Positions 50,301 to 53,300 of a DNA stretch of 64,000 nucleotides are shown here, piece by piece. Made by a program: the position numbers. How positions within the stretch are numbered: the first letter of the stretch is position 1; every line of letters begins with the position of its first letter. Source of the stretch: Escherichia coli (GTDB lineage: Bacteria > Pseudomonadota > Gammaproteobacteria > Enterobacterales > Enterobacteriaceae); NCBI RefSeq assembly GCF_003018115.1, contig NZ_CP027457.1. One strand, given 5' to 3'.

Positions 50301-53300
50301 TGCCGCAGCGCCCTCACATCATGTTGGCATTTCCCGCCAGTCGCACATTACAGCGGTCATTTCCGCGCCCGTCGATGTCCCTCGGTGAGCGGGAGCAAAC
50401 GGCCTGGCTGTCCGGGACGATGGCTCGCGAGCTGGATATGGATCCGGACTCCCTGCGCTTCGATTACAGCGAAGACTCACTCAGTCCCGCCTATAACGTG
50501 ACTGCCGCGCAAAGCAAAGAGCTGGCAACGCTGCTTACTCTGGCAGAAAGGTTGCGTGTTCATGTTAGTGCGATCACCCCGGATGCCAGTGCATTACAGC
50601 GATTCCTGCCTTTTTTACCTTCTCATCAGCAATGTCTGGCCTGGCGTGATAACGAACAGTGGCTGTGGGCGACACGCTATCGCTGGGGGCGCAAACTGGC
50701 GGTGGGGATGACTAGCGCGAAGGAGCTGGCGGCAGCGTTATCCGTTGATCCCGAAAGCGTCGCGATATGTGGCGAAGGCGGATTTGATCCCTGGGAGGCC
50801 GTTTCTGTTCGTCAGCCGCCGCTACCGCCGCCAGGTGGAGACTTTGCCATCGCGCTGGGGCTGGCGCTTGGGAAGACGTACTGATGAACCCGCCAATTAA
50901 TTTTTTGCCCTGGCGACAGCAACGCCGGACCGCTTTTCTTCGTTTCTGGTTGCTGATGTTCGTTGCGCCTCTGCTGCTGGCCGTCGGGATAACGCTAATA
51001 CTGCGTCTGACAAGCAGCGCCGAAGCGCGCATAGACGCCGTTTTGCTTCAGGCGGAACAACAACTCGCCCGCAGCTTACAGATAACGAAACCACGTTTGC
51101 TGGAGCGCCAACAAATTCGTGAGCAGCGTTTGCAAAGGCAGCGCCAGCGACAATTTACCCGCGACTGGCAATCTGCGCTAGAAGCACTGGCGGCGCTTTT
51201 ACCCGAGCACGCCTGGCTGACAACGATAAGCTGGCAGCAGGGAACGCTGGAGATCAAGGGGCTGACAACAAGCATTACCGCGTTAAACGCACTAGAAACG
51301 TCACTCCGCCAGGATGCGTCTTTTCATCTCAATCAGCGGGGGGCCACGCAGCAGGATGCGCAGGGACGCTGGCAATTTGAGTATCAGTTAACAAGGAAGG
51401 TTAGCGATGAACATGTTCTTTGACTGGTGGTTCGCCACATCACCCCGTCTCCGCCAGCTTTGCTGGGCAGTCTGGTTGCTGATGTTAGTTACGCTCATTT
51501 TTCTGTCATCGACACACCATGAAGAGAGCGACGCATTAATTCGACTACGGGCAAGTCATCACCAGCAGTGGGCCGCACTGTATCGCCTGGTAGACACCAC
51601 TCCCTTCAGAGAAGAAAAAACGCTGCCCTTTTCGCCACTGGATTTTCAGTTGCCCGGCGCACAACTGGTTTTCTGGCATCCATCCGCGCAGGGAGGCGAG
51701 TTGGCGTTGAAAACGCTGTGGGAAGCAGTGCCGTCGGCATTTACACGGCTGGCAGAGCGCAACGTCAGCGTGAGCTGTTTTTCATTAAGCGTGGAAGGTG
51801 ATGATCTTTTGTTCACGCTACAACTGGAGACGCCGCATGAGGGTTAAACGCTGGTTGTTGGCAGGTATTGCATTGTGCCTTTTAACCGGTATGCGTGACC
51901 CTTTTAAACCGCCGGAAGATCTATGCCGGATTAGCGAACTTAGCCAGTGGCGCTATCAGGGGATGGTAGGGCGAGGCGAGCGCATCATCGGTGTAATAAA
52001 AGACGGGCAAAAGAAATGGCGACGGGTGCAGCAAAACGATGTGCTGGAAAACGGCTGGACAATTTTACAGCTGACGCCAGACGTACTAACGCTGGGTACC
52101 GGGACAAACTGCGAACCGCCACAATGGTTGTGGCAACGGCAAGGAGATACAAATGAAGCAATGGATAGCCGCACTACTGTTGATGCTGATACCCGGCGTA
52201 CAGGCGGCAAAGCCGCAAAAAGTGACGCTGATGGTGGATGACGTTCCGGTAGCTCAGGTGTTGCAGGCGCTGGCTGAACAGGAGAAGTTGAACCTGGTGG
52301 TGTCGCCAGACGTCAGCGGTACGGTGTCGTTACATCTAACAGATGTTCCCTGGAAGCAGGCACTACAAACTGTAGTGAAAAGCGCCGGACTGATAACGTG
52401 CCAGGAGGGCAACATTCTCTCGGTGCATTCCGTTGCCTGGCAGAATGACAATATCGCCCGTCAGGAGGCGGAGCAGGCGCGGGCGCAGGCAAATCTGCCG
52501 CTGGAAAATCGCAATATTACTCTGCAATACGCCGACGCCGGAGAGCTGGCGAAAGCGGGGGAGAAGCTACTGAGTGCCAAAGGGAGTATGACCGTCGATA
52601 AACGCACCAATCGCCTTTTGCTGCGAGATAACAAAACGGCGTTAAGCGCCCTTGAACAGTGGGTAGCGCAAATGGATCTGCCGGTCGGGCAGGTTGAGCT
52701 GTCGGCGCATATTGTCACCATTAATGAAAAAAGTTTGCGTGAGTTAGGCGTGAAATGGACGCTGGCCGATGCGCAACACGCTGGTGGCGTTGGGCAAGTC
52801 ACCACGCTTGGTAGCGACCTCTCCGTAGCGACGGCGACAACGCATGTCGGTTTTAACATTGGGCGCATCAACGGACGTTTGCTGGATCTTGAGCTTTCCG
52901 CGCTCGAACAAAAACAGCAGCTGGATATTATCGCCAGTCCGCGTCTGCTGGCCTCACATCTTCAGCCTGCCAGCATTAAACAGGGGAGCGAAATTCCATA
53001 TCAGGTTTCCAGCGGGGAAAGTGGCGCGACGTCGGTGGAATTTAAAGAGGCCGTCCTGGGGATGGAGGTCACGCCCACGGTGTTACAAAAAGGTCGCATC
53101 CGGCTGAAATTACACATCAGCCAGAACGTTCCGGGGCAGGTGCTACAGCAGGCCGATGGCGAAGTGCTGGCGATTGATAAGCAGGAGATCGAAACGCAGG
53201 TCGAGGTCAAAAGCGGAGAAACGTTGGCGCTGGGCGGCATTTTTACCCGTAAAAATAAATCGGGTCAGGATAGCGTGCCGTTGCTTGGCGACATTCCCTG

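Follow-up and report, generated by a model that had tools for sequence, protein, structure and literature searches.

The long hofP/hofQ overlap of Escherichia coli is probably a conserved dual-coding segment that arose as hofP read-on

We analyzed the hofP/hofQ junction of Escherichia coli within a window of 64,000 nucleotides (nt) of the chromosome (RefSeq contig NZ_CP027457.1), in which the gene order runs mrcA (minus strand), hofM, hofN, hofO, hofP, hofQ, aroK and aroB. The last 89 nt of hofP, the gene for a PilP-like protein, are also the first 89 nt of hofQ, the gene for a PilQ-family secretin. With a probability of about 0.7, we conclude that this overlap truly codes in two frames, is conserved throughout the Enterobacteriaceae and arose when hofP was read on into hofQ; the added HofP tail would be translated and kept innocuous, and hofQ would be initiated independently. 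The parts of the junction, at window positions, are the following.

51837–52241, plus strand: hofP (134 amino acids (aa), PF10748), ATG at 51837 and TGA at 52239–52241; PilP/GspC-HR-like beta domain at residues ~30–103; 11-nt overlap with hofO.
52141–52146, plus strand: hofQ Shine-Dalgarno sequence AAGGAG, read from the sequence, 6 nt before the ATG and inside hofP codons Q102-G103-D104.
52152–52238, plus strand: HofP C-terminal tail, residues 106–134, EAMDSRTTVDADTRRTGGKAAKSDADGG, predicted to be disordered.
52153–53391, plus strand: hofQ (412 aa, PilQ-family secretin; NF007851, TIGR02515, PF00263), ATG at 52153 and TAA ending at 53391.
52153–52206, plus strand: hofQ signal-peptide codons, MKQWIAALLLMLIPGVQA, with predicted cleavage after VQA and before AK, the cleavage site being judged by eye.
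52153–52241, plus strand: 89-nt overlap, probably dual-coding; hofQ codons 1–30 (of codon 30, the first two bases) and hofP from the final two bases of codon 106 through codon 134 and the stop.
52234–52242, plus strand: hofQ codons V28-D29-D30 (GTG GAT GAC), a conserved N0-domain motif; the hofP stop TGA (52239–52241) consists of the T of GAT and the first two bases of GAC.

The overlap lies exactly where the original prediction had placed it, with the hofQ frame at +1 relative to the hofP frame. RefSeq carries identical gene models for K-12 MG1655 (hofP 3520615–3521019, hofQ 3519465–3520703), and the RefSeq models of strain F9792 match those of the window; the 89-nt overlap is already part of the reference annotation. 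The hof locus was found in 5425 of 5426 complete E. coli genomes.

Scanning a single genome for each species gave 80 Enterobacteriaceae loci, 77 of which, including the window and strain F9792, could be analyzed. As a null model, we resampled the synonymous codons of hofQ under local codon usage while keeping the HofQ protein unchanged. The clearest evidence that the second frame is likely read is the avoidance of T at those four-fold degenerate hofQ sites that fall on position 1 of a HofP codon, where we counted 39 T against 166.5 expected. This avoidance depends on the HofP residue that the T would encode: Cys never occurs (0 observed, 36.6 expected), Tyr (5 vs 23), Phe (3 vs 19), Leu (3 vs 13.9) and Trp (2 vs 5.7) are depleted, and Ser is found 26 times against 35 expected. 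At the same hofQ sites in outgroups, T makes up 27% of the bases. The tails themselves, 74 of them with 1999 residues, contain no Cys (105.6 expected) and 16 Phe, Trp or Tyr (100.2 expected) when resampling is done with the open reading frame (ORF) kept open; averaged over 31 clusters, these values become 0 vs 39.8 and 6.7 vs 45.8, respectively. A constraint at the RNA level or at the 5′ end of the gene is ruled out as the cause of T avoidance, because neither can tell a Ser outcome from a Cys outcome. Together with the outgroup controls, this residue-specific pattern carries the argument, and from sequence comparison we conclude that the hofP frame appears to be translated through the overlap and that its tail appears to be under selection to stay hydrophilic and free of Cys. 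Avoidance of Cys is plausible for a periplasmic protein such as HofP, whose core contains two invariant cysteines, C30 and C92, and may be linked to disulfide formation.

By pairwise statistics as well as by composition, the overlap behaves like a dual-coding region in which each frame is under selection. Upstream of the overlap, codon-position diversity tracks the hofP frame; inside, it switches to that of hofQ. At hofQ four-fold sites in the overlap, the ratio of observed to expected (O/E) is 0.33 among Escherichia species and 0.66 in a set of Escherichia, Citrobacter and Salmonella. Across 24 disjoint sister pairs, normalized by codon family, dual-coded four-fold sites gave 47 observed against 93.8 expected (z = −5.9; O/E 0.50). 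Arranged by position relative to the hofP stop, O/E runs 0.21, 0.53, 0.74 and 0.41 before the stop and 1.22, 1.08, 0.95 and 0.90 after it, with 0.91–1.2 just past the stop; the synonymous constraint does not extend beyond the hofP stop, and it is as marked in the last 8 codons (0.41) as near the start. No deficit occurs in signal-peptide codons that escape dual coding, either within the family after an early hofP stop (4 observed, 3.4 expected) or in Serratia and Hafnia/Obesumbacterium pairs, whose hofQ has no overlap (7 observed, 4.2 expected), and the comparison of dual-coded with non-dual-coded sites gives a Poisson P of ~0.002. Conserved RNA structure was rejected as the source of the constraint: within the overlap, the single-sequence fold had z = −0.05, and RNAalifold on 22 species returned −0.29 kcal/mol and no covarying pair.

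We also observed that, in 33 of 76 Enterobacteriaceae loci, the hofP stop is directly preceded by the Chi octamer GCTGGTGG, formed by hofQ codons T/S-L-V-V. Chi is present in 23 of 31 T-L-V-V contexts, far above the prediction from codon usage (loci L008–L082, e.g. L009:3576–3590). The E. coli window reads GCTGATGG at 52227–52234 and has no Chi at the hofP stop. Chi was rejected as the cause of the conserved G-ending codons, since E. coli lacks it and the synonymous dip is the same in pairs without it (O/E 0.3) and with it (0.2).

The length of the overlap can be traced to the genetic code. For a stop to appear in the hofP frame in this phase, hofQ must have a T-ending codon and, directly after it, one that begins with AA, AG or GA; codons for hydrophobic residues carry T or C at the second position, so the signal peptide cannot supply hofP-frame stops. 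The sole earlier chance in E. coli is A19-K20. When the E. coli codons were resampled, the frame stayed open to the V-D-D motif in 93% of synonymous versions and stopped inside the motif in 71%, with a median overlap of 89 nt and an overlap of at least 89 nt in 64%. The E. coli length is thus the default outcome once the frame is set, and for E. coli alone it is not beyond chance. Retention across the family exceeds the null: the frame is open to the motif in 65 of 75 loci against 44.5 expected (25.2 vs 16.7 in the version with 31 clusters), and the stop lies within V-D-D/E in 62 loci against 31.6 expected. The null is calibrated, in that the ratio of observed to expected off-frame stops in the body of hofQ is 1.00; on this value, and on a ratio of 1.02 in all long ORFs, we dismissed a codon-pair bias against such stops. 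These data show what sets the overlap at ~80–92 nt: no stop is dependable before GAT-GAN, which lies in the conserved V-D-D/E motif where the N0 domain begins.

Among the 77 loci, 75 have hofQ in phase +1 relative to hofP, and 75 have an overlap of at least 38 nt. The lengths are 4 nt (2 loci), 38 nt (3), 59–62 nt (5), 77–98 nt (64) and 122–140 nt (3), and the V-D-D/E codons form the hofP stop in 62 of the 77 (GAT-GAN in 56, GTT-GAN in 6). More distant loci were taken from a representative search and from contig look-ups, a broad search for HofQ homologues having yielded close relatives only. In these outgroups, hofP typically ends on the hofQ start codon. An ATGA junction is found in Serratia plymuthica, S. 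inhibens, Hafnia alvei and Obesumbacterium proteus, and in three of our outgroup loci (L085, L087 and L089), the first of which is Edwardsiella-like with a HofQ 76% identical to that of E. ictaluri; L084 overlaps by 11 nt, L083 has a gap, and in Yersinia frederiksenii the two genes are separated by a gap of +44. The outgroup HofP homologues are 104–129 aa long and have no tail. These junctions resemble those of the pilP-pilQ and comD-comE type, known from type IV pilus and competence operons: the hofP-hofQ pairs of Serratia, Hafnia, Obesumbacterium and the Edwardsiella-like contig share with E. coli the pilM/N/O/P/Q-like gene order downstream of mrcA and the gene for a PilP-like beta domain directly ahead of the secretin gene. 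They differ in that theirs is a 4-nt ATGA or a short gap, whereas hofP of E. coli and most Enterobacteriaceae runs 86 nt further and gains a 29-residue tail.

Because the ATGA junction occurs in the outgroups, the long overlap is probably the derived state, reached when a shift of register by one base removed the TGA of ATGA from the frame of hofP. Within the family, L051 (1184–1220) and L052 (3471–3507), two Leclercia-like metagenome genomes, also have an ATGA junction, with one extra base in the spacer between the Shine-Dalgarno sequence and the ATG; these are probably reversions, and they show that the tail can be lost entirely.

We propose the following course of events. A PilP-like gene would ancestrally have ended on the start codon of a PilQ-like gene, and in an ancestor of the Enterobacteriaceae the spacer ahead of the hofQ ATG would have changed in length by one base, putting the TGA out of frame. 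From then on, ribosomes translating hofP would cross the hofQ ribosome-binding site and the signal-peptide codons, which are stop-proof in this phase and would carry the read-on to GAT-GAN in the V-D-D/E motif. The product would gain 29 disordered residues after its folded PilP-like domain, with no conserved sequence, translated but kept harmless, as synonymous codon choice in hofQ would exclude Cys and most aromatic residues from the tail. HofQ synthesis would start independently at its own AAGGAG, perhaps aided by hofP ribosomes that open the mRNA.

An origin by upstream stop loss places hofP/hofQ in a known kind. In phase 1 overlaps, the upstream stop is lost and the next stop is found by chance inside the downstream gene (PMC10666635; Sabath et al. 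2008, PMC2542354), and the −89, −17 and −11 overlaps of the hof operon all belong to this series. What sets hofP/hofQ apart from generic phase 1 overlaps is that its length is fixed by a stop-proof signal peptide followed by a conserved D-D/E codon pair, and that it persists across a family with a measurable signature of selection on the second frame.

Read-on could also be purely neutral, with an unconstrained tail that persists through code geometry, shared ancestry and the ordinary constraints on the 5′ end of hofQ. The default length obtained by resampling in E. coli agrees with such an account, as does a disordered tail that varies in sequence and length and has been lost in some lineages. 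So do three neighboring genes: the first ~30 codons of aroK (53792–53880), aroB (54370–54460) and mrcA (49985–49900, minus strand) have a four-fold O/E of 0.0–0.5 followed by an abrupt recovery (orthologues L003–L026), and lowered polymorphism at gene starts is a known pattern (PMC10369989). We found no such 5′ synonymous slowdown in hofM, hofN, hofO or hofP, nor in the overlap-free hofQ of Serratia and Hafnia, and a generic 5′-end effect cannot yield an avoidance of T that hinges on whether Cys or Ser would result; it is a minor contributor only. An unconstrained tail is likewise hard to reconcile with the complete lack of Cys where ~106 are expected, with 16 aromatic residues in place of ~100, and with a constraint that is strong in the last 8 codons, stops at the hofP stop and coincides with no conserved RNA structure. 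We therefore consider purely neutral read-on improbable.

Several points weigh against the translated, policed tail that we favor. Since aroK, aroB and mrcA are slow at their 5′ ends and do not overlap, a reduced rate alone is not specific to dual coding, and the non-dual-coded controls are small (about 4–8 expected). Codon usage was estimated from only a few long ORFs per locus, and for 17 loci the hofQ start was assigned by eye. Kinship among the species means that counts are not independent, and the corrections by cluster and by sister pair lessen but do not remove its effect; the direction of change from an ancestral ATGA rests on about ten outgroup loci. Several family members have shorter tails (0–20 aa), and the full tail is thus not essential. 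Finally, we found no expression, ribosome-profiling or proteomic evidence for HofP or HofQ in the literature.

The opposite possibility is that the overlap or the tail is kept for a positive role, such as a contact with the HofQ N0 domain or another partner, or the setting of the HofP:HofQ ratio. Structure prediction bears on this. HofP matches PF10748 with E = 3.3e-80 (266.7 bits vs a cut-off of 24; residues 3–134 cover profile positions 1–132), and NCBIfam has no model that matches it. An AlphaFold2 model built from 57 orthologues folds residues ~30–103 into a beta domain (predicted local distance difference test score, pLDDT, 84–91), whereas residues 108–134 have pLDDT below 50 and no secondary structure. 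The top Foldseek matches of the core are PilP (3jc8_P, 2ivw, 2lc4, 2y4x/y) and GspC-HR (3oss_C), at modest E-values of 5e-4 to 5e-2, and the core has the PilP-type beta-sandwich (HR) fold. PilP and GspC-HR domains bind the secretin N0 domain in type IV pilus and type II secretion systems. The HofP core superposes on the GspC-HR of the GspC HR/GspD N0 complex of type II secretion (3oss_C, TM-score 0.73 on target), and in this model the likeness fits a putative contact between HofP and the HofQ N0 domain; it is structural only and has no bearing on the overlap itself.

A positive role would also agree with the above-null retention of the open frame and of the stop within V-D-D/E, with the strong synonymous constraint in the last 8 codons before the stop, and with the recurrent ...A-G-G-G end of the tail. 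The tail sequence, in turn, is highly variable between genera and holds no conserved motif beyond what hofQ imposes, its pLDDT is below 50, and Leclercia-like, Phytobacter/Kosakonia, Raoultella and other lineages, like all outgroups, have a short tail or none; termination-reinitiation, for its part, needs a distance of about −8 to +6 nt (PMC10666635). We judge a selected function of the overlap or tail to be quite improbable. One version of it, in which the full tail length and the ...A-G-G-G end, both set by the stop within the V-D-D/E codons of HofQ, are selected for periplasmic HofP-HofQ assembly as a spacer or contact near N0, or hofP ribosomes set the HofP:HofQ ratio, is conceivable though unlikely. 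If true, E. coli would have a functional overlap beyond 60 nt between genes on one strand, and one survey judged that no such class exists (PMC2478687).

We made two side observations at the HofP N-terminus (window 51837–51895). It forms a hydrophobic helix of residues 2–17 ending in LLTG|MRDPF, with an invariant RDPF directly after it, and it lacks the lipobox cysteine typical of PilP lipoproteins.

Both gene ends that define the overlap are well fixed. The hofP frame contains no stop before 52239, so the end of hofP is not a matter of prediction. No start codon of the hofQ ORF lies 5′ of 52153, and no other yields a signal peptide; with initiation at M11 or M27, the in-frame ATGs further on, the secretin would lack an export signal. 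The original prediction had based this start on the signal peptide, and it gains from the AAGGAG 6 nt upstream and from conservation: the start and a signal-peptide-like N-terminus are kept in all Enterobacteriaceae loci examined, the GGAG/GGAA core is kept in the family, and G103, within the hofP codons that encode the Shine-Dalgarno sequence, is nearly invariant in HofP. HofQ gives full-length matches to HofQ/PilQ families (NF007851, 853 bits vs a cut-off of 598; TIGR02515 PilQ, 446 bits) and to secretin and N-domain profiles (PF00263, PF03958, PF07660), its signal peptide being judged by eye. Its N0 domain aligns to Vibrio PilQ 6w6m from HofQ residue 23, which puts the hofP stop seven residues into the mature HofQ domain.

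It had been suggested that earlier hofP stops in orthologues would speak against the overlap. Such stops do exist, outside Enterobacteriaceae and in ~10 of 75 family members, and they show that the length of the tail is dispensable, which does not make an artefact of the E. coli overlap. Truncated E. coli HofP variants were set aside as evidence of dispensability, being uninformative N-terminal or frameshift artefacts. Within Enterobacteriaceae, the lengths and ends of orthologues agree as Palleja et al. ask of genuine overlaps, HofP being 130–138 aa long in most genera. Measured against distant orthologues (104–129 aa), HofP would fit their category iii, the 3′-extended upstream gene, yet the extension is fixed in the whole family.

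Annotation error, with HofQ starting downstream of 52241 or hofP ending earlier and no dual coding, is the commonest cause of annotated same-strand overlaps above 60 nt, and all 715 such overlaps of more than 60 bp examined by Palleja et al. (2008, PMC2478687) were classed as mispredictions, mostly 5′ extensions of the downstream gene; but the hofP/hofQ pair was not among them, and the absence of a hofP stop before 52239, the signal peptide that a start at M11 or M27 would cost a secretin, the conserved start with its AAGGAG, and codon avoidance specific to residues of the hofP frame together make it very improbable here.

Overlaps of this kind had been taken to imply tight translational coupling, and for hofP/hofQ this does not hold up. 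Termination-reinitiation coupling works experimentally only at about −8 to +6 nt (Huber et al. 2023, PMC10666635), and long phase 1 overlaps (−8, −11, −14 ... −89) are described there as products of stop loss that lack translational coupling and are hard to shorten. hofP terminates 86 nt beyond the hofQ start codon, its stop ending 88 nt after the first base of the hofQ ATG, far outside this range; hofM/hofN (−1) alone has the classic geometry, and the −17 and −11 junctions are doubtful. With a strong Shine-Dalgarno sequence of its own, hofQ most likely initiates independently, as far as sequence can tell; termination-reinitiation coupling at hofP/hofQ is unlikely, and a contribution of hofP ribosomes that open the mRNA for hofQ is perhaps conceivable as a conjecture. 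A programmed frameshift producing a HofP-HofQ fusion was also rejected, as we found no canonical heptamer, no prfB-like CUU-UGA site and no conserved RNA structure; the fused HofP-HofQ ORFs in databases look like assembly frameshifts.

Among known overlaps, the case is conspicuous for its length. A survey of 338 genomes (Palleja et al. 2008, PMC2478687) found no real same-strand overlap longer than 60 nt, the longest real one being that of holD/rimI in enterobacteria, which measures 32 nt in E. coli and reaches 56 nt in Salmonella and Yersinia. Both pairs are conserved enterobacterial same-strand overlaps in which orthologues keep both protein ends; they differ in that hofP/hofQ, at 89 nt, exceeds the 60-nt limit. 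Neither gene appears in the supplement of that survey, whether as hofP, hofQ, b3391 or b3392, nor does any K-12 entry, and we found no paper that discusses the hofP/hofQ overlap. Overlap by upstream stop loss is a known phenomenon, but a conserved, real case above 60 nt with selection on the second frame seems to have gone unremarked. hofP/hofQ thus offers a clean case, in a model organism, of a long same-strand overlap that is probably not due to annotation error. It also suggests a rule for persistence, namely that a signal peptide is stop-proof in one of the two alternative phases and that the read-on peptide would be policed only for harmlessness (no Cys, few aromatics).

In practical terms, neither hofP nor hofQ can be deleted or recoded without affecting the other, and care is needed when hofQ codons are replaced by synonymous ones. 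A standard in-frame deletion of hofQ, from codon 2 to the 7th-last codon, also removes HofP residues 107–134, and a deletion of hofP removes the Shine-Dalgarno sequence (the ribosome-binding site) and start of hofQ. Judging from this geometry, published single-gene hof phenotypes may be confounded by the overlap. The accepted view of how the Hof system works is left unchanged.

The three genes upstream of hofP complete the operon.

50105–50884, plus strand: hofM (PilM-like), which opens the operon; its stop and the start of hofN overlap by 1 nt (TGATG).
50884–51423, plus strand: hofN (PilN family, PF05137).
51407–51847, plus strand: hofO (PF25319), with a 17-nt overlap with hofN.

The shared bases of this chain (1 nt for hofM/hofN, 17 nt for hofN/hofO and 11 nt for hofO/hofP) are as originally described, and the chain is conserved across the family: the value for M/N is 1 or 4 nt in 57 of 75 loci, that for N/O 17 nt in 37 of 50 assessable loci, and that for O/P 11 nt in 42 of 45. 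Over-expression of Sxy induces the operon, and Sxy-induced DNA uptake by E. coli requires hofQ, so HofQ is functional (PMC3330819). Sxy/CRP-S regulation has been reported for the operon, although a scan of the mrcA-hofM spacer (49986–50104), where the hofM promoter presumably lies, for the CRP-S consensus TGCGA-N6-TCGCA found nothing with two mismatches or fewer; either the true site is more degenerate or the search pattern was too strict. In E. albertii NBRC 107761 (L003, 2965–3589), only partial ORFs match HofO (aa 71–146) and HofP (aa 35–134), and in C. koseri NCTC10786 (L041, 3391–3616) the hofQ ORF begins only at aa 76, which suggests either decay of the operon in some lineages or assembly errors.

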